Virus record (IMG/VR): IMGVR_UViG_3300022752_000083
Location: 1-56,808 of that record
Strand: one strand, 5' to 3'
From: a virus
Taxonomy: Duplodnaviria > Caudoviricetes
DNA length: 56,808 bases
This document shows positions 4,260 through 56,786 of this stretch, in pieces (position 1 is the stretch's first letter; each line of letters opens with the position of its first letter). Both the position numbers and the translations under genes were made by a program. The notes under the pieces were generated by a model that was given only the letters and a program-made list of their open reading frames with translations, was not told the origin of the DNA and ran no database searches.

Positions 4260-4388
4260 TTGACCGAATGGATTGCCTTGACTAGGGCATTCACTGGGTG
4301 GACTCTGTCTGAAATACGCGACCTCTCATACCGAGAGCGAAAGAACTGGCTAGAAGTTGCCAATAGCTATGGACAGGTAGGTGCCTAA
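4260..4388 (+). CDS. small tail assembly chaperone partner (gp51/gpT-like), TTG start or frameshift extension
   Basis: GWTLSEIRDLSYRERKNWL motif typical of second chaperone ORFs; GGAG 5 nt before TTG; stop overlaps TMP start. Confidence 0.6.
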   Translation: MTEWIALTRAFTGWTLSEIRDLSYRERKNWLEVANSYGQVGA

Positions 4389-7042
4389 TGAGTGACGGCA
4401 ATGAACTCGATGAGACCCTACAAGAATTAAAGGCTTTTGAATCTGGGGTTAAATCTGCTACCGGTGCTCTTGATGGATTTGCAAAATCTGCCAAGGGTGC
4501 TAGTGGTGGCACTTTTACTGGTTCAGGAGCCGTGGATTCTGGTCGCAATGGTCTTGCTGACTTCACTATTGCGCCTAGAGGGGACGGTTCAGGTCCGGGC
4601 ATGAACATGCCCAGTATTGGCAAACGACTGGGTCTTGGAACATTTGGAGTTCTTGCAAGCGCCATTCCTACCGGAATTGACGCCATGTACAAGGGAATGC
4701 CCGATGTACAGCAGACAATTGACCGAGCTACGCACTACTACAACGCGGGTATTTACGGCGGAATGGCTGGCGGCAGCAGTCGGATGCAAGCCGCCACCTT
4801 TAGTGCCATGCGAGGCGGGATTACGTCACTGGGTAGCGATGCTCGGGTGGCGGAGTACCTTCAAAGCCGAGGCATGACCCAATCCAAGAGTAACTATCTT
4901 GGGACTGTCTCTGCCGTAAGTAACGCGGCTAAGTACCTGAACATGAGCAACGAGCGTTCTGCCGTAGCTCTTGAAGGCTTGACTAGCGGTAAAACGTCTA
5001 GTGACCTTCTTCGTAACCTTGGCATCTACACCTCAGACCCTCGAAGCGGTCAGGCAAAAAGTCAGAGCCAAATATTTGGTGAGATTGCAAACCGATTAAC
5101 TGCTGGGCAATCTATGGCTACAGTAGACCAAGTTAATGAATCGTTTCGTCGAGGTAAGCTCGGAGCTTCATTGTCTGGTCTTGGGCTTAGCGAAGACCAG
5201 CAAAACATGATGCATATGTACATGGTCGCTCGTGCTCAGGGTGTAAACCTTGACTTGACTAACCAGAAACAAATGGACGCGTTTGCAAAAAAGAACGGTC
5301 TTAACCCAGCGTCTACCGGATATCAAAGCCTTACTTACGACACCAAGGCAATGAATGACGCTCAGCAAAACTACATTAAAGCAACTAAAGATGCTTTGCC
5401 TATAATTAAAGCTTTGAGTGATGCAGCGGGGGCAGCAGCATCCACTCTTCCGGGATACACCAAAGCATTTAGTGCAGCAATTCAAGGAAGCACCGCTGGA
5501 GCTGCGGCTTTCCAAGCTGCTGAAAGCATGGTTACCACCGCTTTGACCGCTTTGGCTGGTGGACTGGGGAGCCTGTTTGGTGGCATGGGCGTAGGTGGCG
5601 TAGGCGGTGGAGGCGGTGGAGGCGGTGGAGGCGGCGGTAAACCTGCTGGAAAATTTGGCAAGTTCATGAGTGTCGCTGGAAAAGTTGGCGGTGCCGCAGG
5701 AATTGTCGGAGGTGCGGCAAGCGCGATTGGTACCGGGATGATGGTTGCCAATAACGCTGACCAAGCAACTGTTACTGGGCAATCTATGCGCGGAATCAGC
5801 CGTCAGGACGCTGACCAAATGGCGTCTGCTGCTGCTTGGTCAAACGCTCTTTCAGGAGCCGGTTCCGGTGCCCTGAGTGGACTTAGCATAGGCGCAGGAA
5901 TTGGAACGTTATTTGACGCGTTTACTTTTGGTACGGGTACTTTAATTGGCGCTGGAATTGGGGCAGTCGCGGGTGGTCTTGCTGGGGGTATTTCTAGTTG
6001 GTTTTCAACGTATAACAACACTATGGCTGGTGCCGGTTACGGAGGTACCAATAGCACTATTAACGCCCAAGGTCCTACAGGAACTGGTCAACAAAATACA
6101 GTTAAGTTTACTTGGCCCGCAGGTAATGCCTCACTTGTTAGTGATGGGTTTGGTCCCCGTGTTCCCCCTAAGCCCGGAGCGTCTTCTTATCACCAAGGTA
6201 TCGACATCAGCGTAGGAATGGGTACGCCCATTATGGCTTCGGCTGATGGTGAGGTTATTCAGTCGGGCAACAACGGTGGTTACGGAAACTGTGTTCAGAT
6301 TAAACATGCCAACGGGTACGTAACGCTATATGGTCACCAGTCGCGTATTGCTACTTCTATGGGTAAAAAAGTTGTTCAAGGTCAAGTAATTGGGTATGTA
6401 GGTAGCACTGGTACTTCGACGGGTGCTCACCTTCACTTTGGTGTTAAAGACGCCTCTGGAAGGTTTATCGACCCAATGAAGGTCCTTAATGGAACTGCTA
6501 GCGCAACCTACGGCTCGCAGAGCAGTGCTAGTGCGTCTGGAAGCTCTTCCCCGGCTTCGGATATGGCGGGAATCAGCGACTCACGAGCCAAGGCTGGAAT
6601 TATGACGGTGTCTAGTTACCGTGGTGCAGAAGTTGGCGGTGGGGGTGCCAACAGTGGGTTCAAAGCTATGGCTATGGGGTCAAACTCCCAGACCAAGGGG
6701 AACATGGCTCTAGGAACGGGTGCAAGTGGGAAAAATAACTTGACCAGTAGCTCTATGGGGATTTACTTGCCCGGTGCTCGTCGAGCTAAAACTGGTGACC
6801 CGTATGTGGCAAACGACGGTCCCGTTAACGTTCACTCAGGTGAAGCTATTCTTACCGCAGAGCAAGCCGAGGTTTGGCGTACAGCGCTAAAGCAGGGTGG
6901 TCTTGGTAAAGGTGGAGGGAACAATGTCACTATCAACCTCAGCATTGCACAGGCTTCCGAAACCGAAGCTCGTCGTTTTGCAACCATTGTGAAAGACATG
7001 CTTGAAAAAGACACGATGATTAAGAACATGGGGATGAAATAA
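4388..7042 (+). CDS. tape measure protein with M23 peptidase domain
   Basis: long Ala/Gly-rich helical protein after chaperones; HQGID, YGH and HLHF M23 zinc motifs. Confidence 0.85.
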   Translation: MSDGNELDETLQELKAFESGVKSATGALDGFAKSAKGASGGTFTGSGAVDSGRNGLADFTIAPRGDGSGPGMNMPSIGKRLGLGTFGVLASAIPTGIDAMYKGMPDVQQTIDRATHYYNAGIYGGMAGGSSRMQAATFSAMRGGITSLGSDARVAEYLQSRGMTQSKSNYLGTVSAVSNAAKYLNMSNERSAVALEGLTSGKTSSDLLRNLGIYTSDPRSGQAKSQSQIFGEIANRLTAGQSMATVDQVNESFRRGKLGASLSGLGLSEDQQNMMHMYMVARAQGVNLDLTNQKQMDAFAKKNGLNPASTGYQSLTYDTKAMNDAQQNYIKATKDALPIIKALSDAAGAAASTLPGYTKAFSAAIQGSTAGAAAFQAAESMVTTALTALAGGLGSLFGGMGVGGVGGGGGGGGGGGGKPAGKFGKFMSVAGKVGGAAGIVGGAASAIGTGMMVANNADQATVTGQSMRGISRQDADQMASAAAWSNALSGAGSGALSGLSIGAGIGTLFDAFTFGTGTLIGAGIGAVAGGLAGGISSWFSTYNNTMAGAGYGGTNSTINAQGPTGTGQQNTVKFTWPAGNASLVSDGFGPRVPPKPGASSYHQGIDISVGMGTPIMASADGEVIQSGNNGGYGNCVQIKHANGYVTLYGHQSRIATSMGKKVVQGQVIGYVGSTGTSTGAHLHFGVKDASGRFIDPMKVLNGTASATYGSQSSASASGSSSPASDMAGISDSRAKAGIMTVSSYRGAEVGGGGANSGFKAMAMGSNSQTKGNMALGTGASGKNNLTSSSMGIYLPGARRAKTGDPYVANDGPVNVHSGEAILTAEQAEVWRTALKQGGLGKGGGNNVTINLSIAQASETEARRFATIVKDMLEKDTMIKNMGMK
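5588..5638 (+). repeat. Gly-coding microsatellite (includes GGCGGTGGA x3)
   Basis: poly-Gly tract inside TMP read directly. Confidence 0.7.
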
Positions 7043-23446: not shown

Positions 23447-25010
23447 GGGTTCTCTTCTTCCTTATCAGGTAGAAGCTGTGGACGCTATGGTGGATAAAAA
23501 GAAACTCCTCATGGCGTATGAGATGGGTCTCGGTAAAACACCGAGCACCATCGCAGCAATCGAAACATTACGAGAAGCCGGTGAGGTCACCTCCCCGGTT
23601 CTTGTGCTTTGTCTTGCTAGTTTGAAGTACCAGTGGCAAAAAGAAATTAACAAGTTCAGCGACCAAACTGCACTTGTAATTGATGGTACTCCCAAGCAAA
23701 GAAATATGTCTTACGAGACATATTTGGATTACAACTACATCATTATGAATTACGAGCAGGTGGTAAATGACTGGGACATTATTCGCACTAAAAGTTTTTC
23801 TGCAATCATTTGCGACGAAGCCACAGCAATCAAAGGATTCCGAGCAAAAAGAGCAAAAAAAGTAAAAGAACTTTCTAAATCAATTCCCATTAGATATGCG
23901 CTTACTGGTACCCCCATCGAAAATGGACGACCAGAAGAAATTTACTCCATCATGGAGTTTGTAAATCGTGAGGTACTCGGTCGTTTTGACCTATTCGACA
24001 AAACTTTCATTGTTCGCAATTACTTTGGTGGAGTTTTGCGCTACCGCAATTTGCCCACTCTCTACTCCACGCTGGCAGACCATACTGCCCGAAAGTCACA
24101 AAAAGACGAGGATGTAGCACCGTTTCTGCCAGACGCAGTTTACCGTGAGCCTTTACTAGTTAACTTTGATACAAAAACTAAAGCACTGTACAACTACATT
24201 GCTACCGATTTGCACTCCCTGCTCTTAGATGCCAGCCAATTGTTTGGAGCATCGTTCAGCATTGCTTCGCACTACGGTCAGTCGCAGGGACCCAATGACC
24301 CTGCGACTGAGATGCGGGGTAAGATTATGTCTCGCATCACTGCGCTTCGCATGCTGTGTTCACATCCTGACCTGCTCAAAGAGAGTTACGAAAATTTTTC
24401 GGCTCAACAGGGAAAAGGAAGTGCTTTTGTGCATTCCCTCGGAGAGGAAGGTTTATTAGAAGGTGTTGATAAAACCCCAAAGCTTGACGCTGTTGTTTCA
24501 TACTTGAGTGAGCACCTAGACATTGATGAGTCGTACAAAGCCGTTGTGTTCTCAAGTTATCTTGGCTCAGTTGACCACATCGTCAATCGTCTAGGTGCAA
24601 AGAATTTTAAAGCCCTCCCCTATACCGGGAAAATGAACGCCAAAGAAAAAGAAGCCAACAAGGTTTCCTTTCAAACCTCGACCGACATCCGCGTACTTGT
24701 AAGCAGTGACGCTGGAGGGTACGGAGTTGACTTGCCCCAAGCAAACTTGCTTATCAATTACGACCAGCCTTGGTCCTCCGGGCTTTCAGTTCAGCGTAAC
24801 GGTCGCATCAAGCGCACAAGCTCCACGTGGCAAACAGTGACTATTCAAGACTTTCTTATCAATGGCTCTATTGAGCAACGTCAGTACGACATGCTTCAGC
24901 AAAAGATGAGTGTCGCAGGGGCAGTGTTAGATGGAGAAGGTATAAACTCTGACGGAGGGGTTGACCTCACTGTTGGAAGTTTGATAAATTTCCTATCATC
25001 ACGAATTTAA
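23439..25010 (+). CDS. SNF2-family helicase
   Basis: MGLGKT, DEAT, LTGTPIEN, GVDL, QRNGRI.R. Confidence 0.9.
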   Translation: MFKGSLLPYQVEAVDAMVDKKKLLMAYEMGLGKTPSTIAAIETLREAGEVTSPVLVLCLASLKYQWQKEINKFSDQTALVIDGTPKQRNMSYETYLDYNYIIMNYEQVVNDWDIIRTKSFSAIICDEATAIKGFRAKRAKKVKELSKSIPIRYALTGTPIENGRPEEIYSIMEFVNREVLGRFDLFDKTFIVRNYFGGVLRYRNLPTLYSTLADHTARKSQKDEDVAPFLPDAVYREPLLVNFDTKTKALYNYIATDLHSLLLDASQLFGASFSIASHYGQSQGPNDPATEMRGKIMSRITALRMLCSHPDLLKESYENFSAQQGKGSAFVHSLGEEGLLEGVDKTPKLDAVVSYLSEHLDIDESYKAVVFSSYLGSVDHIVNRLGAKNFKALPYTGKMNAKEKEANKVSFQTSTDIRVLVSSDAGGYGVDLPQANLLINYDQPWSSGLSVQRNGRIKRTSSTWQTVTIQDFLINGSIEQRQYDMLQQKMSVAGAVLDGEGINSDGGVDLTVGSLINFLSSRI

Positions 25011-25020
25011 AGGACATAAC

Positions 25021-25464
25021 ATGGCACAGATTATCCCCGAAGAGGAAACACGGTTTGTTGACCCCAACAGCCTTGAAGCACAGGTGCGTGAATACGCAAA
25101 GCTTAAGGCTTCTATGAACTTCATGGAAACTCGACAAAAAGAACTGCGTGACCTGTTGTTTGCCAAGATTGAGCAAGAAGGTTACGAAGACGACAAAGGC
25201 AATATTATCCTCGACCTTCCTCAGTCTATTGAGGGTATTAGTGCACTTCAAAAAACTGCTCGAATTACTCCCTACCTTGATGACACCGTTGCAGACCGCA
25301 TTATTGAAGAAAAGGGCATTGGTGATGACGTGTACAAAATGGTTCGAGTAATCGACGAGGGTGCTCTCATGTCTCAACTTTACGAGGGTAAGTTGACTGA
25401 GGATGAAATTGACGAAATGTTCCCCAAGAAAACCATTTGGGCTTTGACTACCAAGAAGGGATAG
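25021..25464 (+). CDS. hypothetical phage protein
   Basis: SD AAAGGA; coiled-coil N-terminus; clean ORF. Confidence 0.7.
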   Translation: MAQIIPEEETRFVDPNSLEAQVREYAKLKASMNFMETRQKELRDLLFAKIEQEGYEDDKGNIILDLPQSIEGISALQKTARITPYLDDTVADRIIEEKGIGDDVYKMVRVIDEGALMSQLYEGKLTEDEIDEMFPKKTIWALTTKKG

Positions 25465-25465
25465 C

Positions 25466-25954
25466 ATGCCCGGAATGCGTAGTGAAGAAGACATTCTTCG
25501 CGCTTTTGAAGGTCTAGATAAAGTTCCCGGCTCCAAGAAACCCCGTAGGGATACCACCCCTGTTGCTGACCGGCGACGAGCAAAAGCCCTTGGAGAATCA
25601 AACGGGTGGGACAGTAATCCCATCATTAAACACATGCAAGGCGTTCCTATAGAGGTCTTTACTATTAGCGCATTAGCAGATGCTCTGGAGAAAAAAGTAG
25701 TTACAATTAGGCTTTGGGAAAAGAAGGGGTACATCCCCATCGCTCCCTATCGTTTGCGGTCTAAAACCTTGAACGGTAACAAAGTCAACGGTAACCGAGT
25801 GTATACTCGGGAACTGATTGAAATAGCAATTGAGGAATTTGGCAAGCGAGGACTTCTTGGTTCTGCGCGTGTCGAATGGAATCAATTGGGTGACCTAACA
25901 TCTATACTTGTAAATAGATGGAAAGAAGCCATCAACCAAAAGCCGAGTGCGTAA
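25466..25954 (+). CDS. MerR-like HTH DNA-binding protein
   Basis: FTISALA.AL....TIRLWEKKGYIP...R.YT. Confidence 0.7.
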   Translation: MPGMRSEEDILRAFEGLDKVPGSKKPRRDTTPVADRRRAKALGESNGWDSNPIIKHMQGVPIEVFTISALADALEKKVVTIRLWEKKGYIPIAPYRLRSKTLNGNKVNGNRVYTRELIEIAIEEFGKRGLLGSARVEWNQLGDLTSILVNRWKEAINQKPSA

Positions 25955-25972
25955 GTACTCATTACCGAAAGT

Positions 25973-26644
25973 ATGCCGATTATGCAATTGCCAAACATTG
26001 ATGCCGATGATTACGACATCCCAGCAGTTCTTGCTGAGGATTCGCCTACCGCTACACCTAAGTACGGAACTTCCGTACAGTCTGGTTGGGGAACCGCGCC
26101 TGTTAACAAGGACAAGAAGTACCCTACCGCTTTCAAATTCGGTCCTCAGACTCAAGTAGTCGCCTTTTTTGAGGACGCGCCGTTTGCTAACTACAAGCAG
26201 CACTGGATTGACCGTTCCGCAGGAAAGCGTTCTTTTGTCTGCGCACTTCCCGGACAGCCCTGCCCGTTGTGTGACAAGCCAGTCAGCAACGTACCTGCAC
26301 AGAAGTATGACTTCAACGTCGTAGTTCTTACAGACGAAGAGTGGGAAGTCAAGATTTTGACTGCCGGTGCCAGTTTTGGACGAGACTTGCAGACAGCTAA
26401 TGAAGACCCGATGCGTGGTCCTTTGACCAAGTCATTTTGGGCAATCTCTCGGCAGGGAATGGGTCCCACCACGCGCTTCTCCCTTGAGCGTGTTCGTCCC
26501 CGTGACCTAGCCGAAGAGTGGAAAATCGACCCTGACAAGGTTGCTGAGTTCATGGCAACCGCTACTCCGTACACAACTGACACAGTTTACGTTTCCCCCT
26601 ACGAGGAACTGGTCAAGCTTGCGGAGTCTTTCGGGGCTGCGTAA
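25973..26644 (+). CDS. gp32-like single-stranded DNA-binding protein
   Basis: QHWI...SFVC....CPLC zinc motif; ISR.G.G..T; upstream of polymerase. Confidence 0.65.
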   Translation: MPIMQLPNIDADDYDIPAVLAEDSPTATPKYGTSVQSGWGTAPVNKDKKYPTAFKFGPQTQVVAFFEDAPFANYKQHWIDRSAGKRSFVCALPGQPCPLCDKPVSNVPAQKYDFNVVVLTDEEWEVKILTAGASFGRDLQTANEDPMRGPLTKSFWAISRQGMGPTTRFSLERVRPRDLAEEWKIDPDKVAEFMATATPYTTDTVYVSPYEELVKLAESFGAA

Positions 26645-26652
26645 CCACTCAT

Positions 26653-26705
26653 AGAACGGGGGCTGAGGTGGCTTTCTATCCTTTCTACACCTCAGCCCCC
26701 TTCTT
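26653..26705 (+). ncRNA. 13-bp GC hairpin with anti-SD-like 17-nt loop (terminator and/or regulatory RNA)
   Basis: GGGGGCTGAGGTG 26658-26670 / CACCTCAGCCCCC 26688-26700; loop GCTTTCTATCCTTTCTA. Confidence 0.65.
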
Positions 26706-26749
26706 AATTGGTGGGTAAGTAAAGGAAAACTTTAACAAGGGACAATAAA

Positions 26750-28753
26750 ATGAACATTATTACTACAAGGGAACAACTAGAAGAGTTTGTACAGGCGTAC
26801 AGCAAGGTAGAAGCTTTTGCTTATGACTGCGAAACTATTGGGGAAAACCGAGTCAATACCATCATCAATGATGTCTGCTGGTTATCTTTTGCCATTGATG
26901 ACAGAGTTGACGTAATCCCCATGGGTCATCCGAATGGGGAGTTTGAGTTTTGGACCAAACCGCTTCTTATCTCGGGCAAACGTCGAGTCGCAGAAGGTAA
27001 GTCCCTTAGTGATACTCATTTTTCCAAAAACTCTAAACTATGGATTCCCCAGTTTACAGACCCGCCAGAGCAATTGACTCCAGCAGAGGTATTTTCTGCA
27101 ATCAAGCCCATTATGTTTGGACCCGCATTGAAGGTCGGTCACAACTTGAAGTTTGACCTGAAGTCTGTGGCTAAATATTACAAGACCACTATCCCTAGCG
27201 GTCCGTACTTTGACACAATGATGGCTTCGTTTATCATTGATAACCGTAACCGTCATAAGCTGAGCCTACTCTATTGCGTAGAAAGAGAACTGAAGGTCAA
27301 GATTGAGAAAGGTGTTGGAGAAGACATCTCACAGCATTCCTTTGCAGACGTGGCGAAATACGCAGGTATTGACGCGGATGTAACGTGGAAACTTTACAAG
27401 GCTCTTGCACCTAAACTGCAAGACAACTTGAGTAAAGTTTGGAAACTAGAGATGGATTGTCTCCCCGCACTTTGCGACATGGAACTTGCCGGGGCGGTCA
27501 TTGACCTTGACCAACTTAAAGTTCTTGACGAGCAACTTTCGCACGACAAGCTTGAAGCAGAGAAACGTGTGTACAGGTTGGCTGGTGAAACGTTCAGCAT
27601 CAACTCCGTACCCGTAAAGCAAGAGCTATTATTTGCAAAGCGCGAGGGGGCTAAAGCACCCAGAATTCGTCCAAATCCAGCACTAAAAATTGCTCTTACC
27701 CCCAAAGGTCAAGAGGCACGGGCAGCAAACGCCCCAATTCTTCCGCATCACTACTCTGTTAGCGCAGAGGCATTGGAAATGTACCGGGGTCAGGATGAGT
27801 TGGTGGACGCCCTGCTGGATTACCAAGACCTCAACAAGATTATGACCACGTATGTTACCCCCTACGCTGGAGGGGAAGTAAAGCGTGTAAATAAAGGTAA
27901 AGAACGACTTATTGACAAAAAGAGTCTACTTATTAAAGGTCGCGTGCACACAGACTTTAAAGCCCACGGTGCCGAGACTGGTCGTTTGTCTTCCGCTAAT
28001 CCTAACTTGCAGAACATCCCGTCATCGGGAGAGTACGGAAAGCTTATTCGCAATCTTTTTGTTGCTCAGCCGGGGTACAAGTTAGTTGTAGCAGACTACT
28101 CTCAGATTGAGCCACGAATTATTGCTTCGTTTTCAAACGACCCCGTTATGACAGAGACCTACCGAACGGGCGGGGACATCTACACGGCTATTGGTGACAC
28201 TATGGGTGTTGACCGTAAAGCAGGTAAGGTTTTAGTTCTCGCCATCTCGTACGGAGTGGGACCGGACAAGATTGCCTCCAGCATTGGGTGCTCAGTAAAA
28301 GAAGCCCGAGAACTTCTTGCCAATTTTGAGGCTGCATTTTCCTCGGTCACTAAGTACAAGGGCGAGGTAGTTCGTCTTGCTCGACAAACAAAACCAGTGC
28401 CGTATGTGGAGACTATCTTTGGACGTCGGAGATACTTACCAGACCTTTTGAGTCAAGAACAAGGTTTCCTTTCCAGAGCAGAGCGTCAAGCATTTAACAC
28501 TGTTATACAAGGTTCTGCTGCGGATGTTATGAAGTTGGCTATAGTTCGCGCCCACTCCTGCTTTATCGATGAACCAGACATTAATGTGGTGCTCACGGTG
28601 CACGACGAACTAGTCACCATGTGCCCTGAAGACCGAGCAGACGAGACCGTAGAAGCAATTCGCGTGTCGATGGAAGGCATCAAACTAAAGCAGATTACAA
28701 TACCTCTTGTGGCTGGAATTACCGTAGTTGATAAATGGGGCGAAGCAAAATGA
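26750..28753 (+). CDS. polA: family A DNA polymerase with 3'-5' exonuclease
   Basis: YDCET, HNLKFD, TGRLSS.NPNLQNIP, ADYSQIE.R, R.AFNTVIQGSAAD, VHDE. Confidence 0.95.
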   Translation: MNIITTREQLEEFVQAYSKVEAFAYDCETIGENRVNTIINDVCWLSFAIDDRVDVIPMGHPNGEFEFWTKPLLISGKRRVAEGKSLSDTHFSKNSKLWIPQFTDPPEQLTPAEVFSAIKPIMFGPALKVGHNLKFDLKSVAKYYKTTIPSGPYFDTMMASFIIDNRNRHKLSLLYCVERELKVKIEKGVGEDISQHSFADVAKYAGIDADVTWKLYKALAPKLQDNLSKVWKLEMDCLPALCDMELAGAVIDLDQLKVLDEQLSHDKLEAEKRVYRLAGETFSINSVPVKQELLFAKREGAKAPRIRPNPALKIALTPKGQEARAANAPILPHHYSVSAEALEMYRGQDELVDALLDYQDLNKIMTTYVTPYAGGEVKRVNKGKERLIDKKSLLIKGRVHTDFKAHGAETGRLSSANPNLQNIPSSGEYGKLIRNLFVAQPGYKLVVADYSQIEPRIIASFSNDPVMTETYRTGGDIYTAIGDTMGVDRKAGKVLVLAISYGVGPDKIASSIGCSVKEARELLANFEAAFSSVTKYKGEVVRLARQTKPVPYVETIFGRRRYLPDLLSQEQGFLSRAERQAFNTVIQGSAADVMKLAIVRAHSCFIDEPDINVVLTVHDELVTMCPEDRADETVEAIRVSMEGIKLKQITIPLVAGITVVDKWGEAK

Positions 28754-31710: not shown

Positions 31711-32017
31711 CGAGGGACAAAAGCAGAGTCAGGCGCACGAAAAGCGTATTGCCAAGGCAATTGGGGGCAGCACAACCGCTGCCTCTGGTGCTTTCTGGTC
31801 TCGTAAGGGAGACGTAAGAAACGCTGACTTGCTTATTGAACACAAGTGGACCGGCAAAAAAACCAAGACCATTAGTTCGGCAGAGCTAAAAAAGATTACC
31901 AATGAAGCAATCATGGATGGTCGCCTTCCCGTATTTGGCATCCACCTTGACGGCGAAGACTACGTAATTCTTCTTGAGACCGACTTCCTAGAGATGTGGG
32001 AAAAGAATGCGGGATGA
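31703..32017 (+). CDS. Hjc-like Holliday junction resolvase (PD-(D/E)XK)
   Basis: HEKR.A..IGG...ASGA...KGDV....LIEHK; TTG start. Confidence 0.7.
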   Translation: MRSEGQKQSQAHEKRIAKAIGGSTTAASGAFWSRKGDVRNADLLIEHKWTGKKTKTISSAELKKITNEAIMDGRLPVFGIHLDGEDYVILLETDFLEMWEKNAG

Positions 32018-32321
32018 ATCATGGCGTGAACAAGCTCGGTGTAGAGGGGAAGACACCGAGCTATTCTTCCCACCCCGTGATAAAGACAAATACAAGTCAA
32101 TTGCAGACCAAGCAAAAGTTTACTGTTTTGGGGTAAATGGCAAGACACCGTGCCCAGTCCTAAACGAGTGTCTGTGGTATGCGATAGACTCCGATGAAGT
32201 GCACGGAATCTGGGGAGGAATGAGTCATAGAGAACGAAACGCCTTGGTTAGAAAATGGCGGAGACTTTACAAAAACAAAATGACTCTTGAAGAATACGTG
32301 CTAAATGAAAGGACCGTCTAA
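32007..32321 (+). CDS. whiB: WhiB-family transcription factor
   Basis: W..QA.C....ELFFP, C......CPV..ECL.YA, GIWGG.S..ER. Confidence 0.9.
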   Translation: MRDESWREQARCRGEDTELFFPPRDKDKYKSIADQAKVYCFGVNGKTPCPVLNECLWYAIDSDEVHGIWGGMSHRERNALVRKWRRLYKNKMTLEEYVLNERTV

Positions 32322-34115: not shown

Positions 34116-34350
34116 CTCATTTACTCCTGAAGAAGTAGACCGAATTGAAGACAAAGCCTATGAAGTAGGCGTCGGCATTGGGGCAAGCCAAGAGCGTGAG
34201 CGCATCAAAGTAAATATTGAAAAACGTATCGAAGAATTGTCTTCATGCAATAAAGACGACGACTGTGCAAAGATTGCAGACTACATAGAGTCTTATCTAC
34301 CAGAGTGGCTTGAGTCAGTTGTTGCAGATATCAAGGGAGAGAACGAATGA
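34108..34350 (+). CDS. small ERxRI-family protein
   Basis: ERERIKVNIE...IKGENE. Confidence 0.65.
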   Translation: MRDSFTPEEVDRIEDKAYEVGVGIGASQERERIKVNIEKRIEELSSCNKDDDCAKIADYIESYLPEWLESVVADIKGENE

Positions 34351-34910
34351 GCCAAAAATATGATGTGGTTTTATGTGACCCGCCTTGGTCATACTATGGG
34401 CAACAAGACAAGTGGGGTGCTGCCGCAAAGTTTTACCCAACAATGAGCGACGATGATTTGCGCAACTTTCCTATCAAAGACTTTTTGAATGACACAGGCG
34501 TTGTTTTTATGTGGGCAACATCCCCCCGCTTAGACTTTGCTATTGAACTACTAACACATTGGGGGCTACACTACAGGGGGGTTGCTTTTGTATGGGTAAA
34601 AACCAAGCAAACCGGGGAACCCATTGGAGCGCAGGGCGTAAGACCGTCGTTTATCAAGCCAACTACTGAGTATGTTATTATTGGTGCTACTTCCGACAAA
34701 GGTCGCGTATTGAAATTGAACGACGAATCAATCCGGCAAGTAATAATGTCTCCCAAGCAAGAACATTCACGCAAGCCGGATGATGTTCACATTGCTATTT
34801 CAAAGATGTATCCCAACGCATCTAAGATAGAGTTGTTCGCTAGGCGACCTTTCGAGGGGTGGGACGTCTGGGGGAATGAAGTGCCGATTATCAAGGGGGA
34901 GACTGAATGA
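34347..34910 (+). CDS. MT-A70-family N6-adenine methyltransferase
   Basis: DPPW, FMWAT, WVK, EHSRKP, IELFARR..GWDVWGNE. Confidence 0.9.
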   Translation: MSQKYDVVLCDPPWSYYGQQDKWGAAAKFYPTMSDDDLRNFPIKDFLNDTGVVFMWATSPRLDFAIELLTHWGLHYRGVAFVWVKTKQTGEPIGAQGVRPSFIKPTTEYVIIGATSDKGRVLKLNDESIRQVIMSPKQEHSRKPDDVHIAISKMYPNASKIELFARRPFEGWDVWGNEVPIIKGETE

Positions 34911-36107: not shown

Positions 36108-36401
36108 GTGTCAGAAGACGTTGCTGTTTTTTCATCTAAAGAACCGTTTCTCAAAGTAAGCGCTGGTTCAAACCCGCAGTCTGTTGCCTCCGCAATTGCC
36201 TACGCGATTTATGAGAACCATACAGTTAAATTGCGTGCTGTTGGCGCTGGGGCAGTAAACCAAGCGTGTAAAGCCATGGCGATTGCTCGTGGGTACGCAG
36301 CCCCAAGAGGACATGACCTGAATTTTAAGGTTGGTTTTGCCACAATTGAGTCACGTGATGGTCAAATTTCTGCACTTGTTTTTACTGTGACCTCAAGTTA
36401 A
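36108..36401 (+). CDS. spoVS: SpoVS-family (Alba-like) nucleic-acid-binding protein
   Basis: LKVSA.SNP.SVA.AIA...AVGAGAVNQA.KA.AIARGY.AP.G. Confidence 0.85.
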   Translation: MSEDVAVFSSKEPFLKVSAGSNPQSVASAIAYAIYENHTVKLRAVGAGAVNQACKAMAIARGYAAPRGHDLNFKVGFATIESRDGQISALVFTVTSS

Positions 36402-37694: not shown

Positions 37695-38525
37695 GTGGCA
37701 ACCGAACAAACTGAAGATAACGAAGGACCAAAAACTCTGGCGGTACCATCAAGTGCCAACATTAAACTTCGTTCTAGAAAAAAGAACGGACCCCCCATTG
37801 CCGCCACCTCACGCACAGCGGATACTTGCGCTCCAGATTGTCCGTTCCTTGACAAAGGACCGCATAACGACCAAGACGGTGTACCTATTTGTTACGCTAA
37901 TGAACGCACTCGTCGTCCCGCTATTTTTGACGTTGCAGCACGTTTTGGGTTAAAAATTACGCGAGAAGCACTTGATAAAATTCGTGTAGGAACAGCATAC
38001 AAAGCACCTGTAAGACACCTTGTTTCCGGAGACATTGCCGGTCCTGATGATGATTACTTAAAAGAAGCAAACCACTTGCATGAGATTCGGCAAGATTTGG
38101 AAGGATGGGGATACACCCATCATTGGCGGCATATTTCTCCCACTGATGTAAAAGGATGGACGCTAAACGCTTCAACAGAAAGCCCCGCTCAAGCAAAAGA
38201 AGCTATTGGAAAAGGTTGGCAAGTAGTAATTGAGTCTCCAGAAGGAGAAGAACTTGCCGGACAACGAATTGCTGGGCGTAAAGTTGTTGCGTGTCCCAAC
38301 CAATCTACTCATGGTTTGGTTGGGTGCGCAGACTGCACACTTTGTCGAAAAGATACCCCCACTCGCCCCATTGTTGAGTTTACTATCCACGCCCGTTCAA
38401 AAGCCCGAAAAGAACAAGTCAATGATATTGTTCGAGGAATTCGTAACCAAGGACCTGTTGATTTAGGTATGCCTACTATCCGTAAAGCAGACGCGTTTAA
38501 AACAGGGTTTACGGACAGAGGTTAA
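37695..38525 (+). CDS. Cys-rich gp88-like/radical-SAM-like protein
   Basis: TC...CPF...CYA, R.LVSGD, GYTH.W, LNAS.ES, CP...C..C.LC. Confidence 0.6.
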   Translation: MATEQTEDNEGPKTLAVPSSANIKLRSRKKNGPPIAATSRTADTCAPDCPFLDKGPHNDQDGVPICYANERTRRPAIFDVAARFGLKITREALDKIRVGTAYKAPVRHLVSGDIAGPDDDYLKEANHLHEIRQDLEGWGYTHHWRHISPTDVKGWTLNASTESPAQAKEAIGKGWQVVIESPEGEELAGQRIAGRKVVACPNQSTHGLVGCADCTLCRKDTPTRPIVEFTIHARSKARKEQVNDIVRGIRNQGPVDLGMPTIRKADAFKTGFTDRG

Positions 38526-41967: not shown

Positions 41968-42016
41968 TTTCAAATATTGCAAATCAGGTGTATGATTCCC
42001 TTAGAAAGGAATCATC

Positions 42017-45320: not shown

Positions 45321-45806
45321 ATGCAAATACTGGTGCAACTAGACGGCGTTCTGCGGAATTCTGACGACCAAATCATCCCCACGGGGATAATCATGGCGTC
45401 TACATTGACTGTCTATAATCAGTTGACCTATATGTCAACGATGACGAGAGCCGAGACCGAGCGTTGGCTCAACGTAAACAAAATCGTTGACTTCGATAAC
45501 GTAATTGATAACTCTGTGGCTTTGGCTGGGGAAAGTCTGGAAGAGCGACAGATTAACTATGCTCGCTCTCGTGGTGCTATCGACTTGTTCATCACCGGAG
45601 ACCCCCACCTGTGGGCTTACGCTTTTGACCTCGGCATTGCATCCGTGATGTTTGCTCAACCTTCTTACCTGCGACCTGAGTTTCGACCTGATGCTCCTCG
45701 TAAAGTACGTGCATGGTCTGAGATTGAAGAGGCTGTGGAAAAGCAGAACGAGCTTCGGACCACCGACCGTCGCCTTACTCGCACAGAAACTTTAAACTTC
45801 GAGTGA
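45321..45806 (+). CDS. HAD-fold protein lacking the nucleophile Asp
   Basis: ILVQLDGVL (cf. DxDGVL), LFITGDP. Confidence 0.6.
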   Translation: MQILVQLDGVLRNSDDQIIPTGIIMASTLTVYNQLTYMSTMTRAETERWLNVNKIVDFDNVIDNSVALAGESLEERQINYARSRGAIDLFITGDPHLWAYAFDLGIASVMFAQPSYLRPEFRPDAPRKVRAWSEIEEAVEKQNELRTTDRRLTRTETLNFE

Positions 45807-47305
45807 TTATCTTTGGTGGCGTAGAGATTCCAAGTAACCGCACTCTTTTGGAGAGGAGCGGTGTTCAACACGTCATGCTCAACTACTGGGGCTTGCGCAA
45901 ACGTGGGCTTCCCAAAACCAAAGAGTATTTGATTGGTGAGCACTTTTTGCCTGACATGAAAGTGTGGGTAGACTCTGGAGCTGTCCAAGCTGATAAGGCT
46001 AACCTGTCTCGTCAGGAGTTGGAAGACTACGCTGCGGACTACGAGGACTTCATCGCTATCAACTACGACCGCATCGAGGGCTGGGTAGAGTTCGACAGTC
46101 AGGTGCTCGGGCTTCCTGCTATTCAGCAGAACCGAGCTGCCTACGAGAACGACCCCAAGCTCTGGGTAGTCTGGAGAGAGTCCTACGGGCAGATGCTCTT
46201 GCAACGATGGGCTTCTGATTATGCTAACGTTGCTATTCCTTACGAGACTATAGAGTCTGTGACTAACCTTTCTACGGTTACGCGCTCCTTGACTCAGAAG
46301 CATGGTGTTGCTTTCCATGCTCTTGCTACTGCTAAACCTGACAACCTGCGCCAGATTCCATTTGCTACTGCATCTACACTTGCTTGGATTTCCCCCATGC
46401 GTAGAGGCGAAACAATCGTTTGGGATGGCATGAAGCTCATGCGGTATCCAAAAAAGATGAAGGCACAGGCTCGACCAAGATACCGAGCGCAAGTGCTGTC
46501 TGCTGGATTAGACTTTGATTTGTTTGTTGCGGATGACACTTTGGAATCTACACGGGTTGCTATCTGGTCATTTTTACAGTTGGAGAGGTCAATGGATAAA
46601 GATAAACCAGAATTACGCGCTATAAAAGGTGGCAAAGATGACTTGTTATCTGATAACAGTGATGACACCCTATACAGCGGTTTGATGGAATTAGGGGTAG
46701 GGTCTTCTAATAACAGTGGGTCTGAGATGCGGAAACATGAAGCCTCAGAAGTGATTCCCAGAGACCCCTCAGAGGTCACTCCGCTACCTGTTTTCGGGTA
46801 CTCAATGAAGACTATTGTAGACGTAGATGATGCCGGTAACGAGGTGCTTAGAGACGCGCCTGTGGTGCAGTCCAACGGGGTGTCTTTGCGCAACTGCAAC
46901 ACCTGTTTTGTGGCTTCCAATTGCCCTGCTTTCAAGCCTGATACGACCTGTGCCTTTAACCTGCCAGTAGAGGTTCGTACCAAAGAACAATTAAAGGCTC
47001 TTCTTACTGCAATCATTGAAATGCAGGGGCAAAGAGTAGCATTTATGCGCTTCCAAGAGGAATTGAACGGCGGGTATGCTGACCCCAATGTGTCCCAAGA
47101 AATGGATAGATTATTCAAGTTAGTTAAGTCCGTCAAAGAATTAGAAGAGAATAAAGAGTTCATCAGAATCACTGCTGAACGCCAGTCCTCTGGTGGAGTA
47201 TTGAGTGCCATTTTTGGTGATAGGGCTGCTGCTCTGAGAGAGATGGAACAACCTCTAAATGAAGAGCAAACCACTATGGTTATTCGGCAATCCATCGAAA
47301 ACTAG
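45803..47305 (+). CDS. TGT/DpdA-like barrel fused to a Cys4 plus helical C-terminal domain
   Basis: VWVDSGA, FHALAT...L...PF.T.S..W..P.R.G; CNTC....NCP......C. Confidence 0.55.
   Translation: MIIFGGVEIPSNRTLLERSGVQHVMLNYWGLRKRGLPKTKEYLIGEHFLPDMKVWVDSGAVQADKANLSRQELEDYAADYEDFIAINYDRIEGWVEFDSQVLGLPAIQQNRAAYENDPKLWVVWRESYGQMLLQRWASDYANVAIPYETIESVTNLSTVTRSLTQKHGVAFHALATAKPDNLRQIPFATASTLAWISPMRRGETIVWDGMKLMRYPKKMKAQARPRYRAQVLSAGLDFDLFVADDTLESTRVAIWSFLQLERSMDKDKPELRAIKGGKDDLLSDNSDDTLYSGLMELGVGSSNNSGSEMRKHEASEVIPRDPSEVTPLPVFGYSMKTIVDVDDAGNEVLRDAPVVQSNGVSLRNCNTCFVASNCPAFKPDTTCAFNLPVEVRTKEQLKALLTAIIEMQGQRVAFMRFQEELNGGYADPNVSQEMDRLFKLVKSVKELEENKEFIRITAERQSSGGVLSAIFGDRAAALREMEQPLNEEQTTMVIRQSIEN
46641..46660. 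repeat. palindromic 20-mer, copy 1
   Basis: ACTTGTTATCTGATAACAGT. Confidence 0.75.
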
Positions 47306-47349: not shown

Positions 47350-48339
47350 CTATTTTGCGTACTTTTGAAGCAAAGGAAGCGGGTCAACAAACGTTTCACC
47401 GTCTTGGATACCAAAGTGCAAATGCGCCCCAGTTGATAGACCTGTGTTACCGACTAATCCAATCTGCTGACCCATCTGAACTTTGCTTCCTACAGTTAGA
47501 CCAGCCGGTGCTGAACCGTTAATCATGTGCCCGTAGTAAAGATGCCATGTGCCAGCGTCTTGAATAATGACGTGATAGCCAAGTGAGCCTTCATACCCTA
47601 TCCATGTGATTACCCCATCGGTTGCCGAGTATACGGGGCTTCCATATCCGGGGTTGAAGTCAATCCCTTCGTGATAAGTAGAGCACGTTGGGCAAGGGGC
47701 ATCTCGATACCCAAACCCAGAGGATATTGGGGCACTACTTCCCACAGGGTAAACCATCTTTGGAATGTAAATGCCCATTCCACGAGTAGCATCCGGCACG
47801 GGTGAAGACTCTACAACTAAAAATTGAGAGTTTGACTTTATGCTTTCCCAGTCAGAGTTGTAAGCAAAAGCAGGTTGAGACATTGGTGCAGTTGATGAAG
47901 CCAGTACAAGACCCGCAATGATTGCGCTAGTAGAAACTTTGGTTTTGTTTCTTGACTTTACATTTGTTTTGGTTTGAATGATTGGTTTTTGTTCTTCTTC
48001 AGGCAAGTCTGGTGCGGGAATGATTCCATAAATATCTTCCGCCATTAGTTCAACCAACACTTTCATGATGTTGTCGTCTGTAACTTCACGAAAAAACCTT
48101 TTAAGTATTGATACGGCTCTTGCTCGCTCTTCTTCCCGAAGTTTGAATCCTGCTAGGTCGTATCGCTTTAGTACCCCTGCTTGCCATTTTTGTAGACCAA
48201 CTTCATTTCCAACAACTTTTAGGTATTCTCTGCGAGAGCGTTGTAATGCGTATAGCACAGGGTCTGCTTTTGCAGACTTGCTATTGAATTTCCATCTTTG
48301 TTGTAAGACTTCAAGTTCTAGTTGTTGTTTCTTGTTCAT
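47350..48339 (-). CDS. membrane-anchored M23 peptidase
   Basis: N-terminal soluble domain, hydrophobic segment, HEGID, YGH, HLHF. Confidence 0.85.
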   Translation of the reverse strand: MNKKQQLELEVLQQRWKFNSKSAKADPVLYALQRSRREYLKVVGNEVGLQKWQAGVLKRYDLAGFKLREEERARAVSILKRFFREVTDDNIMKVLVELMAEDIYGIIPAPDLPEEEQKPIIQTKTNVKSRNKTKVSTSAIIAGLVLASSTAPMSQPAFAYNSDWESIKSNSQFLVVESSPVPDATRGMGIYIPKMVYPVGSSAPISSGFGYRDAPCPTCSTYHEGIDFNPGYGSPVYSATDGVITWIGYEGSLGYHVIIQDAGTWHLYYGHMINGSAPAGLTVGSKVQMGQQIGLVGNTGLSTGAHLHFGIQDGETFVDPLPLLQKYAK

Positions 48340-48549: not shown

Positions 48550-48822
48550 TTAATTGTCGTGTAAAGCATTGTTAGTCCCCTCTAGCAATCTGTATTGCCT
48601 ATTCCTTTCTTGGCGTAACCCTCTGCGTTCTTGCCTTGTTGTTCCGCCCCATACCCCGTAGTCCTCTGGATACGGTGTTTTTAGTGCCGTTTCAAGACAC
48701 GCTTCTTTTAGTGGGCATTGTCTGCATAATCTCAATGCAAAGTTAAGGGCTGTCGAAGCGAAGTCCACAAAGAATGCGTCAGGGTCAGTTTGGGCGCAGA
48801 GTGCATCTTCCAGATTGTGCAT
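48550..48822 (-). CDS. whiB: WhiB-family transcription factor (second)
   Basis: ALCAQTDPDAFF, CRQCPL..ACL..AL, GVWGGTT..ER. Confidence 0.9.
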   Translation of the reverse strand: MHNLEDALCAQTDPDAFFVDFASTALNFALRLCRQCPLKEACLETALKTPYPEDYGVWGGTTRQERRGLRQERNRQYRLLEGTNNALHDN

Positions 48823-49568: not shown

Positions 49569-49589
49569 TGTATTTATCCTTTCAGTAGG

Positions 49590-50888: not shown

Positions 50889-51360
50889 TGTTTTGTTCCT
50901 TTCGTGCGATGATGATGTTTTTCAGGTCGTTACGGTGCTTCATAATGCGTGAAGCAGAGGGGAACATACGACCATTGGAGAGTTCCCACGGTGCATTTTT
51001 GTGAAGCACTCCGTTCTTGACACATTCGTGAACGATTGATTCCAAAGTGTCAAGAGACTCGAAGTAACGTTCTGTTTCTTCGGCTACACACTTGTCTACC
51101 TGCGCCTGAGTTTCATTGATTCCACTCAGTAGGATGACAAATTTGCGTTCCCCCATACGCACAAGAGCGTCACGGAAACTGTTGCGTTTAGAAAGACTGC
51201 GTAACTCGTCTTGGAATTCCCACAGAGCGTCAATGTTGTTAAGCATGGTCTGTGATTCGTCATACGCGGTCTCAAACTCAGACTCAAGAATGAGCAGTTG
51301 TTCTTCGGTGAAGCCGGATGCGTCACGCACGGCTTGCAGTTCGTTGTCAAAAGTTAGCAT
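50881..51360 (-). CDS. hypothetical protein
   Basis: SD AAGGA; helical. Confidence 0.65.
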   Translation of the reverse strand: MLTFDNELQAVRDASGFTEEQLLILESEFETAYDESQTMLNNIDALWEFQDELRSLSKRNSFRDALVRMGERKFVILLSGINETQAQVDKCVAEETERYFESLDTLESIVHECVKNGVLHKNAPWELSNGRMFPSASRIMKHRNDLKNIIIARKEQNNG

Positions 51361-51369
51361 TGGGTGTCC

Positions 51370-51849
51370 TTACCACGAAGCCACATACTCAAAGTCGCAG
51401 TCTGCAAACTTTGGGTTATCGAGAATGGCGGAGACCATGTCCAGCGTGTACTGGATACTCCACCAGTAAGTGTCATCAATGTCGGTAGAGCCAAAGAAGA
51501 ATCCACTAATAGGGGGCAAAATGTCTGGGTTCTTGTCGGCAAGAGCAGACTGGCACAAAGAGACCAATTCATCTAGGTCGGAACGACTGACATAGTATGG
51601 TTGGCAGTTGTCCTCACCCTTGCCTACGGCATTGACAAACCAGTTGTGGATTGCGTTCTGCTTACGCCAATACCCAACTTTAAATGAAAGTTGTACAGAC
51701 GGATAATCGTTCTGAAAGTCGCTACGTTCCATGCCGGTGGCACTTAGAATCGCATCGAATTCGGGAGTGGGCAACGGCACATCCGTTTTCCAGTCGTAGT
51801 CAGTACCTCGCACATATTTGTTGGCGAATAGGTACATATCGAGTCCCAT
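51370..51849 (-). CDS. widespread phage early protein (MGLDMYL...YWRK.NAIH.WF family)
   Basis: recognisable motifs incl. GFFFGS..D..Y and terminal Y.ASW; own promoter and SD. Confidence 0.8.
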   Translation of the reverse strand: MGLDMYLFANKYVRGTDYDWKTDVPLPTPEFDAILSATGMERSDFQNDYPSVQLSFKVGYWRKQNAIHNWFVNAVGKGEDNCQPYYVSRSDLDELVSLCQSALADKNPDILPPISGFFFGSTDIDDTYWWSIQYTLDMVSAILDNPKFADCDFEYVASW

Positions 51850-54334: not shown

Positions 54335-54541
54335 CTACTCCATTTCCTCTGTGTCTGTGTATTCAAAGTCTTTGTAGACTGAGTACGACAAGACTCCCTC
54401 GACTGATTCGTCTGTCATTTCAAACTCTGGATTGGAAATCAAGAGTGTGTCTGCTATGTCTACTGCCTGTTGTTCATCCTCTGCGGTGACAAAGGCTACT
54501 TTGGCAAGCGTGTAATAAAAAGTGACCTTGTATGTTTTCAT
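54335..54541 (-). CDS. hypothetical protein
   Basis: SD GAGGAG; start MKTYKVTF. Confidence 0.6.
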   Translation of the reverse strand: MKTYKVTFYYTLAKVAFVTAEDEQQAVDIADTLLISNPEFEMTDESVEGVLSYSVYKDFEYTDTEEME

Positions 54542-54849
54542 CGTGAATACTCCTCGTCGAATTGAGATATGAGGGACTCGAATCCCGCATTTGGATTGTA
54601 AGGGTGGGTACTGACCGCTTCGATGAACCGTAGTGAGCATGACTCTGACCACCACTTCTCAAGCCAGCGAAACATTATTTCTGGTGTGGCTTGGTTGTCA
54701 TTGACAGTAATCAGGGTGTCGTAACCATACCCTCGCATGAGCGAGACCTGCTCGTCATCCATGAGTACATAGATTTTGTGACAGGTGTCCCACGCGATAC
54801 CACGCGCGTCAGCGAGCCGTTCTTCGATTAATGTTTCGTTAGTTAGCAT
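54538..54849 (-). CDS. hypothetical phage protein
   Basis: SD GAAAGGA; IAWDTCHKIY and W..SC.LRFI blocks. Confidence 0.7.
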   Translation of the reverse strand: MLTNETLIEERLADARGIAWDTCHKIYVLMDDEQVSLMRGYGYDTLITVNDNQATPEIMFRWLEKWWSESCSLRFIEAVSTHPYNPNAGFESLISQFDEEYSR

Positions 54850-54871
54850 TGTGATTATCCTTTCGTGATAA

Positions 54872-56390: not shown

Positions 56391-56786
56391 TTAGACAGGT
56401 TGTAATTCTTCTTGCCTTGCCAATTCAGATGACGTGTTGCGAGTGTAGGTCGTTGTTCCCCACGATAGGTCATGCCCGATAGCGTCTGCTTCCACTTCCA
56501 CAGTCGTGCCAGACCGTGCTGAGGTTTCCCAGTCGCGGATACGCAACCGACCAACGACAATTACTCTGTCTCCTTTTTGGATTGAGAGTGCGCTGTTGAG
56601 TGCTAGATTGCGGAACATTGAGACCGTGTACCAGTTTGTGTCGGCGTCAACCCAGCGTTGCTGTACGCGGTCATATCGACGTTGTGAACAGGCAAGGCGG
56701 AATGACGTGATGGCGAGACCATCACTAGTTACAATGTGTCGCGGTGTCGTTGCCACCAGACCGGTGAGCGTTACGTTGTCAGTCAT
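56391..56786 (-). CDS. ssb: bacterial-type (actinobacterial) single-stranded DNA-binding protein
   Basis: VTLTG.VAT.P, SFRLA, WYTVS.FR.LA, KGDRV.V.GRLR.RDW, EVEADAIGHDL.WG. Confidence 0.9.
   Translation of the reverse strand: MTDNVTLTGLVATTPRHIVTSDGLAITSFRLACSQRRYDRVQQRWVDADTNWYTVSMFRNLALNSALSIQKGDRVIVVGRLRIRDWETSARSGTTVEVEADAIGHDLSWGTTTYTRNTSSELARQEELQPV

Follow-up and report, generated by a model that had tools for sequence, protein, structure and literature searches.

RNA regulation has been little studied in phages of actinobacteria. The described systems that stand closest to the element reported here come from several sources. In phage T4, the gene 32 mRNA is the most stable of the T4 messages, gp32 and gp43 are autogenous translational repressors that act on a structured element and an unstructured region over the ribosome-binding site (RBS), and RegB inactivates early mRNAs at GGAG Shine-Dalgarno (SD) sequences (all according to the accessible part of PMC3014915). 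In Staphylococcus aureus, icaR's 3' untranslated region (3'UTR) pairs with its own 5'UTR (PMC3868564, in the portion available), and the 6C sRNA of Mycobacterium tuberculosis belongs to the sRNAs of Gram-positives with C-rich loops (PMC6486639, likewise in part). In the literature outside subscription journals on anti-SD terminator loops, actinobacterial C-rich loops and freshwater actinophages, as far as these texts are accessible, no description of an element such as the one below was found. In the present study, we analysed the hairpin between ssb and polA in a stretch of phage DNA of 56,808 bases (hereafter the window). The hairpin is conserved, covaries, is specific to one strand and is linked to ssb. 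With moderate confidence, we take it to be a leaky terminator of the gp32-like ssb cistron that also stabilises the message, and from its features we infer termination, stabilisation and a step-down in expression. The features of the locus are as follows.

25008..25015, plus strand: RBS of the gene at 25021-25464, TAAAGGAC, candidate partner of the loop in relatives
25946..25961, plus strand: 5' leader hairpin of ssb, GAGUGC-GUAA-GUACUC (-8.4 kcal/mol, z -2.4)
25973..26644, plus strand: gene of the gp32-like single-strand DNA-binding protein (ssb), 223 aa, recognised by Foldseek fold matches
26645..26657, plus strand: C-rich, G-poor 5' flank CCACTCATAGAAC, with a CCACTCA motif that recurs in relatives
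26658..26670, plus strand: 5' arm of the hairpin, GGGGGCTGAGGTG, pairing perfectly with 26688-26700
26671..26687, plus strand: pyrimidine-rich loop of 17 nt, GCTTTCTATCCTTTCTA, a tandem of a 9-nt unit that ends in UCCUUUCUA
26688..26700, plus strand: 3' arm of the hairpin, CACCTCAGCCCCC, pairing perfectly with the 5' arm
26701..26709, plus strand: T-rich tail TTCTTAATT, whose first four bases can pair with AGAA at 26653-56
26739..26744, plus strand: likely polA SD, AAGGGA, 5 nt before the ATG
26750..28753, plus strand: family A DNA polymerase with a 3'-5' exonuclease domain (polA; PF00476 1.8e-85, PF01612 2.3e-17)

The stem begins 13 nt past the TAA of ssb and is a perfect helix of 13 bp with a GC fraction of 0.77, which can be extended by pairing of AGAA (26653-56) with TTCT (26701-04) around a bulged C26657. 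The spacer of 105 nt folds at a minimum free energy (MFE) of -41 kcal/mol (z -4.63), and none of 200 shuffles was as stable. Among the 11 perfect stems of at least 9 bp in the window, the ssb-polA hairpin is the longest, and no other hairpin of this kind occurs there. The loop consists of two copies of the unit SCTTTCTAY (26671-79 and 26680-88), the final letter of the second copy being the first base of the 3' arm. The 5' flank has 46.5% C and 7.5% G, and the tail TTCTTAAT has 5 T in 8. The earlier note on this DNA had described an extendable GC stem, a tandem loop that is unusually large for a terminator and a weak U-tail. Our measurements confirmed the anatomy of the stem and the repeat, and they make the remark on the tail a fair one. 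The loop of 17 nt is likewise large, since the loops of intrinsic terminators usually have 3-8 nt.

The relatives were collected by a polA-based scan of IMG/VR, which gave 84 matching stretches, and 80 loci with 58-96% amino-acid identity were kept. With the window included there are 81 loci. Contig ends truncate seven of them, and the 74 syntenic loci in which the end of ssb and the start of polA are both present hold 49 distinct ssb-polA spacers. A strong hairpin was found in every one of the 49 spacers of these related uncultured actinophages, beginning 9-27 nt past the ssb stop and with stems of 12-20 bp. The covariation alignment was built from 32 of the 49 spacers, with exclusion of 16 rows of a sister clade and the long-branch locus L027. 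In this alignment, compensatory changes on both sides were seen in 13 of the 14 stem pairs, and the proportion of paired cells was 93.4%, against 75.7% in shuffles (0 of 500 reached the real value) and 42-58% with a slid partner. The covariation of the stem, which the earlier note had proposed as a check, is thus present. Furthermore, the 695 base pairs of the 49 spacers include 35 G:U pairs, 0 A:C pairs and 3 mismatches. These numbers indicate that the structure is selected on the plus (sense) strand, which speaks for RNA. Related loci of about 500 kb in total contain 26 perfect GC-rich hairpins of at least 11 bp and 24 of them are the ssb-polA hairpin, which is a singular feature and not one of many terminators. 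Between the window and its relative L001, the spacer is identical at 100 of 105 positions with 0 differences in the loop, while 105 of 214 four-fold sites of polA differ, and this comparison indicates that selection on the spacer is strong.

The identity of the first gene deserves comment, because its product of 223 aa has no Pfam or PHROG match. A PDB sequence search with the protein (SSB) and its profile gave chance matches only, and nothing was found by tblastn against cultured phages, by the profile scan of genome contigs or by the DNA search against cultured phages. A structure model, made with 38 homologues (pLDDT 73.5), matched the gp32 core of RB69 and T4 in Foldseek (E 8.6e-5 to 1.6e-3, probability 1.0, TM about 0.5) and the protein annotated as SSB in Streptomyces phage BRock (E 3.4e-12). 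These fold matches show that the earlier note labelled the gene ssb correctly and that its product is a gp32-type protein. The window also encodes a canonical bacterial-type SSB (56391-56786, minus strand; PF00436, E 3.8e-18), so that the phage has two unrelated SSBs.

The nearest cultured phages are the Streptomyces phages BRock, GiJojo and pSt2308, with polA 35-36% identical. A strong hairpin lies directly 3' of ssb in all three of them (z -7.1, -6.3 and -4.2, respectively), and the gene that follows ssb is something other than polA in GiJojo (where it is a small ORF) and in pSt2308. The hairpin is tied to ssb and not to polA. The loops in these phages are short or unrelated, with UACAUU in BRock and 12 nt in GiJojo and pSt2308. 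At the other end of the gene, the tetraloop of the leader hairpin in the window contains the stop codon of the upstream gene and is followed by AUUACCGAAAGU and then the ATG. The ssb leader hairpins of the relatives were parsed by script, and the consensus of the family is GAG(N)GC-GNRA-GC(C)UC, then AYUACCGAAAG, then the start codon. A GNRA tetraloop is present in 26 of 36 distinct leaders, and the upper stem covaries (L002-L077; window element 25946-25972). The role of this leader hairpin may be that of a 5' stabiliser or that of an operator for translation of the gp32-like SSB. Should the reading proposed below be true, two conserved RNA hairpins would enclose a gp32-like ssb cistron, from the freshwater actinophages to the Streptomyces phages.

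We propose that the hairpin, a plus-strand RNA stem-loop, is the 3'-end element of the ssb message, where it could serve both as a leaky factor-independent terminator and as a barrier to 3' exonucleases. Both functions agree with the site of the hairpin just past a stop codon, with its stable stem, with a tail enriched in T and with the hairpin on the 5' side of the cistron. The end of the hairpin is only 17-58 nt (median 21) from the polA ATG, and for this reason polA would be expressed by read-through and termination would be only partial. Together with the small GNRA hairpin of the leader, the 3' hairpin would set the ssb cistron apart, and the stoichiometric SSB would be made in excess of the catalytic PolA downstream. 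If this reading is true, it describes an ordinary but clean differential expression within a phage replication operon. Like intrinsic terminators and intercistronic stabilisers, the element has a GC-rich stem just past the stop codon (13 bp here, and in the same 12-20 bp range over the 49 relatives) and a T-enriched tail. The number of T after the stem is on average 3.86 of 8 over the 49 spacers, against a background of 25%; at least 5 T in 8 are seen in 17 of 49 spacers, and the sister clade has mostly 2-4. Unlike intrinsic terminators, it has a poor U-tract and, in about half of the family, a loop of 12-29 nt. Loops of at least 12 nt, in 26 of 49 spacers, count against the terminator reading, and only 14 of 49 spacers, the window not among them, have loops of at most 7 nt. 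The setting also differs from that usual for a terminator, as the downstream gene is essential and has no room for a promoter of its own. The promoter and terminator scan, which covered loops of at most 8 nt only, gave counts at chance level. The hairpin may also be likened to T4 gene 32, in that it follows a gp32-like ssb whose T4 counterpart has an exceptionally stable mRNA (PMC3014915, in its accessible part).

The less ordinary part of the element is a large purine-free loop that is kept while synonymous sites are near saturation and that resembles the anti-SD tail of 16S rRNA. Across the 49 spacers, loop lengths range from 3 to 29 nt and 79% of all loop bases are pyrimidines. Pyrimidine-rich loops (at least 9 nt and at least 80% C+T) make up 21 of 49, six of them entirely purine-free; short loops of at most 7 nt make up 13; loops with CGGAU, all in the sister clade, make up 9 (8 by motif, and L032, which has a 4-nt loop as parsed, by hand); and 6 are of other types. 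In the clade of the window, the motif YCC(C)UUUCU stands 1-3 nt before the 3' arm. In eight pairs of loci with a four-fold divergence of 0.48-0.72, mismatches were counted at 11 of 108 positions in the loop, 41 of 224 in the stem and 41 of 160 in the 3' flank. In addition, loop-loop alignments of 20 pairs were compared with composition shuffles, and for 9 of these pairs no more than 13 of 1000 shuffles matched the real score. These counts argue that the loop sequence is under purifying selection and is not neutral filler. Such selection is not accounted for by a plain terminator. In a quick tree of polA, the pyrimidine loop needs 7 changes, at least four of which are forced by well-supported branches, so it was lost at least four times, and the short loops are nested within the pyrimidine type. 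The repeated loss indicates that the loop is dispensable. We regard the pyrimidine loop as an accessory module that is conserved in the clade of the window and lies outside the core function. The check on a conserved loop that the earlier note had proposed gives a mixed result, with the stem in 49 of 49 spacers, the pyrimidine-rich loop in 21 and CGGAU in 8. A comparison with Rfam at the gathering score gave 0 matches, 6C included, and at E up to 10 the best score was 18.6 bits (gathering 70), from an unrelated family. The sister clade (L032, L033, L035, L053, L054, L056, L065, L071 and L072; polA 58-60% identical) has the loop motif (U)GCGGAUU and the 5' flank GCGA..GUCCCA, and this hints at a different loop ligand there.

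We then consider what the loop may do. Its likeliest activity, which we put forward tentatively, is pairing with the purine-rich ribosome-binding regions of neighbouring replication genes. In the version modelled on the icaR 3'UTR, which is the best lead on the loop but which we regard as rather doubtful, the loop would pair within the operon with the RBS of gene 25021-25464, the second gene upstream of ssb, and perhaps that of polA, and this would damp translation or trigger decay while being compatible with a terminator stem. Like the 3'UTR of icaR, the element would be a C/U-rich, anti-SD-like 3' untranslated sequence that could pair with an SD of the same transcript. In icaR the pairing is reportedly done by the anti-SD motif; here the motif lies in a terminal hairpin loop, and the candidate partner is an RBS 1.6 kb upstream on a polycistronic phage message. 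The RBS of gene 25021 is the best partner of the loop among six neighbouring genes (mean -9.41 kcal/mol, 15 loci), and the loop and RBS of the same phage pair better than those of different phages (9 of 5000 with pyrimidine-rich loops, 7 of 5000 with loops of at least 9 nt). The signal holds over four window sizes (1-9 of 5000) and when single loci are left out (worst 6 of 2000), and the real loops exceed their composition shuffles (-171.0 vs -151.6 +/- 8.5; 15 of 1000). Four other neighbouring genes gave p above 0.7, and polA was marginal (97 and 355 of 5000). Matches of 8 bp which include the A-rich spacer past the GGAG were found in L018, L031 and L074. However, reversed loops also score (80 of 5000), which means that composition accounts for part of the signal; the gene-by-set tests numbered twelve, with statistics that ignore kinship; the pair in the window itself is weak (6 bp, -5.6 kcal/mol), and L043 and L022 match poorly. 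The SD of gene 25021 is the strongest among the local genes in most relatives (UAGGAGG-type), and lineages without the pyrimidine loop retain the same strong SD. Over the RBSs of 15 genomes, with heuristic gene calls, the advantage of own over cross pairs is tiny (0.1-0.4 kcal/mol; permutation p 0.003-0.18 depending on the statistic), and the residual of the window's own genome is unfavourable. Covariation between the loop and this RBS is suggestive. To cis control of polA, in which the loop or the C-rich 5' flank pairs with the polA SD, we give very little credence; it covers both a pseudoknot and a masking of the SD that is relieved by the ribosome terminating on ssb. The MFE folds of many spacers do show the 5' flank paired with the polA SD, and pyrimidine-rich loops pair with their own polA SD marginally above cross pairs (166 and 97 of 5000). 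Nevertheless, the 5' flank pairs no better with its own SD than with others (own -4.42, cross -5.59), and masking by this flank was rejected because own pairs are not above cross pairs. The loop signal falls to 1028 of 5000 in the major clade, an ideal SD is a far better partner for the loops than the polA SD is, and in the window the 5' flank pairs with GGTGG (26711-15) rather than with the SD. The AAAGGA at 26721-26, the proposed partner of a pseudoknot, belongs to an insertion that only the window and L001 share. Two other pairings were tried and rejected: kinetic competition by the loop through order-specific pairing to the 5' arm (-328.0 vs -332.4 +/- 9.8 in shuffles), and pairing of the loop with the ssb leader (-81.3 vs -81.7 in shuffles). 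A larger role was given to the loop in the earlier note, namely that an abundant RNA from the ssb 3' end mimics the anti-SD tail of 16S rRNA and would act in trans on SD-dependent mRNAs, both early phage and host ones, masking them as a global shut-off. We consider this shut-off very unlikely. In the window, 8 sites show a complementarity of 7-9 nt to the loop, and RBSs make up at least 5 of them. For the loop of a given phage, about 23% of the RBS regions in the genome of that phage pair with it at -9 kcal/mol or better. With an ideal SD, loops of the family reach -10 to -14.6 kcal/mol, and they match the 16S tail better than shuffles do. Against this, the loop has been lost at least 4 times with other motifs in its place, its likeness to the 16S tail is mostly compositional, and a loop match of 7-9 nt would face competition from the ribosomal tail, which is far more abundant. 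The division into early and late RBSs on which the shut-off depended is weak, as AAGG-type SDs without GGAG occur in 1 of 16 structural genes and 21 of 68 other genes (Fisher p 0.058), and GAAAGGA-type RBSs also precede plus-strand replication genes, so that the classes overlap. The claim of a global trans shut-off RNA is left unsupported.

Two further readings place the function in protein binding or in the DNA itself. As a protein-binding operator, the hairpin with its unstructured loop and A/U-rich 3' flank would nucleate SSB or the polymerase and control translation of the next gene. The autogenous repression by gp32 and gp43 makes this conceivable, and so does the likeness to their operators in T4, where structured RNA also lies beside an unstructured RBS region in the replication genes for SSB and DNA polymerase (PMC3014915, accessible part). 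From the end of the hairpin to the next start there are 21 nt (median), in a G-poor spacer (G 9% before the SD zone), and the loop sequence is conserved, with a different conserved CGGAU in the sister clade (8 of 49 spacers). However, the gp32 operator, as described in that part of the source, is a pseudoknot in the 5' leader with an A/U-rich region over its own RBS, and our element is 3' of ssb and without a pseudoknot. The gp43 operator is a hairpin upstream of the RBS of the polymerase gene and specific to that gene; here the polymerase is of family A and not of family B, and the hairpin stays behind ssb in GiJojo and pSt2308, where another gene than polA comes next. Taken together, an operator is quite improbable. 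Least credible of all, and given next to no weight by us, is a DNA-level element, that is, a hairpin in single-stranded DNA or a cruciform that serves replication, for example as a priming or loading site. It would suit the position inside the replication gene block, and G:T pairs are tolerated in DNA hairpins. The 35 G:U(T) pairs against 0 A:C are nevertheless specific to one strand, the sense strand, and the element is placed exactly in the gap from a stop codon to the following RBS. Its tail is T-rich, and iterons and an AT-rich tract are absent. The reading that we retain is that of a leaky terminator and stabiliser of ssb.

The resemblance to the anti-SD tail needs some qualification. The 16S tail GAUCACCUCCUUUCU is given for several Gram-positives, none of them actinobacterial (PMC6288834, in the part available). 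At least 6 nt are shared with this tail by 14 of the 49 loops, and the summed longest match of the loops is 214, compared with 196 +/- 6.3 in shuffles (5 of 1000). The loop does present a single-stranded C/U-rich motif complementary to SDs, as expected of an anti-SD riboregulator. Of the mimicry claimed in the earlier note, the conserved pyrimidine tract YCC(C)UUUCU that resembles the 16S tail has stood, but the likeness is mostly composition. The eight complementary sites named there as RBSs all exist: TAGAAAGGA at 42002, 48345 and 51856, GAAAGGATA at 49575, 54856 and 56297, and (A)GAAAGGA at 50897 and 52387. At least five are placed as RBSs, since those at 42002, 48345, 49575 and 51856 lie 5-8 nt before called start codons and that at 54856 lies 6 nt before the ATG of ORF 54538-54849. 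Most of these sites are in the minus-strand block; a gene of the region, 51370-51849, has no relative in five related genomes.

It is improbable, in our judgement, that the loop is a working mimic of the 16S 3' tail on an abundant stable ssb 3' fragment which acts in trans, by SD masking or as a toxin decoy. For the decoy, mycobacterial MazF-mt11 cuts CACCU (PMC12274833) and RelE1 releases the anti-SD region (PMC12620021), each as given in the accessible part of the source; if true, it would be an RNA-based counter-defence against host toxins that remove the anti-SD tail. In the proposed shut-off role, the hairpin might be compared with T4 RegB as a phage device directed against the SDs of a class of messages, with the difference that RegB is a protein endonuclease and the hairpin is RNA. 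Like sRNAs of the 6C type, which use C-rich hairpin loops to bind G-rich targets in actinobacteria (PMC6486639, available portion), it has a pyrimidine loop. It differs from them in being one hairpin, U-rich too, at an mRNA 3' end rather than in an independent gene, and with no Rfam match. Should the pairing with a specific RBS partner prove true, an anti-SD module in a terminator loop would represent a compact new form of 3'UTR regulation in actinobacterial phages.

The product of gene 25021-25464, the candidate partner, has 147 aa with a helix of 36 residues and is conserved beside the gp32-like SSBs in this phage family. Its fold matches only uncharacterised phage proteins, among them those of Streptomyces phage BRock and Bacillus phages BCD7 and G, plus long-helix matches at Z below 4. 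Several of these matches are from the same phages as the gp32-like SSBs. The window record of 56,808 bases is estimated to be 59% complete and has a GC content of about 47%. It encodes the tail sheath, tube and baseplate, and its replication block contains genes for a DnaC-like loader, DnaB, primase, SNF2 helicase, PolA and a RecA-like protein. Other genes of the window are listed below.

4388-7042, plus strand, and 47350-48339, minus strand: two genes with an M23 peptidase-like domain
32007-32321, plus strand, and 48550-48822, minus strand: two WhiB-family genes (E 2.7e-19 and 1.4e-17)
among 34347-34910, plus strand, and 37695-38525, plus strand: MT-A70 methyltransferase and DUF7227 protein
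36108-36401, plus strand: SpoVS-like protein (PF04232, E 6.6e-25)
45803-47305, plus strand: queuine tRNA-ribosyltransferase-like gene (phrog_887, E 9.6e-57)

The two WhiB genes point to an actinobacterial host, and the runs that contain this DNA are labelled as lake or freshwater metagenomes. One of the M23-domain gene products is a tail or tape-measure-like protein, and the other gene, at the convergent junction 47305/47350, is probably an endolysin. The queuine tRNA-ribosyltransferase-like, MT-A70 and DUF7227 genes suggest functions in DNA modification. In addition, within 26578-26722 the contigs of two sequencing runs, one of RNA and one of unrecorded type, break at or beside the hairpin. 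The contigs of the two RNA runs cover fragments, one RNA contig ends at 26641, and the gap in the run of unrecorded type (X5) is 26578-26722 itself. These breaks look like an assembly effect of the inverted repeat.
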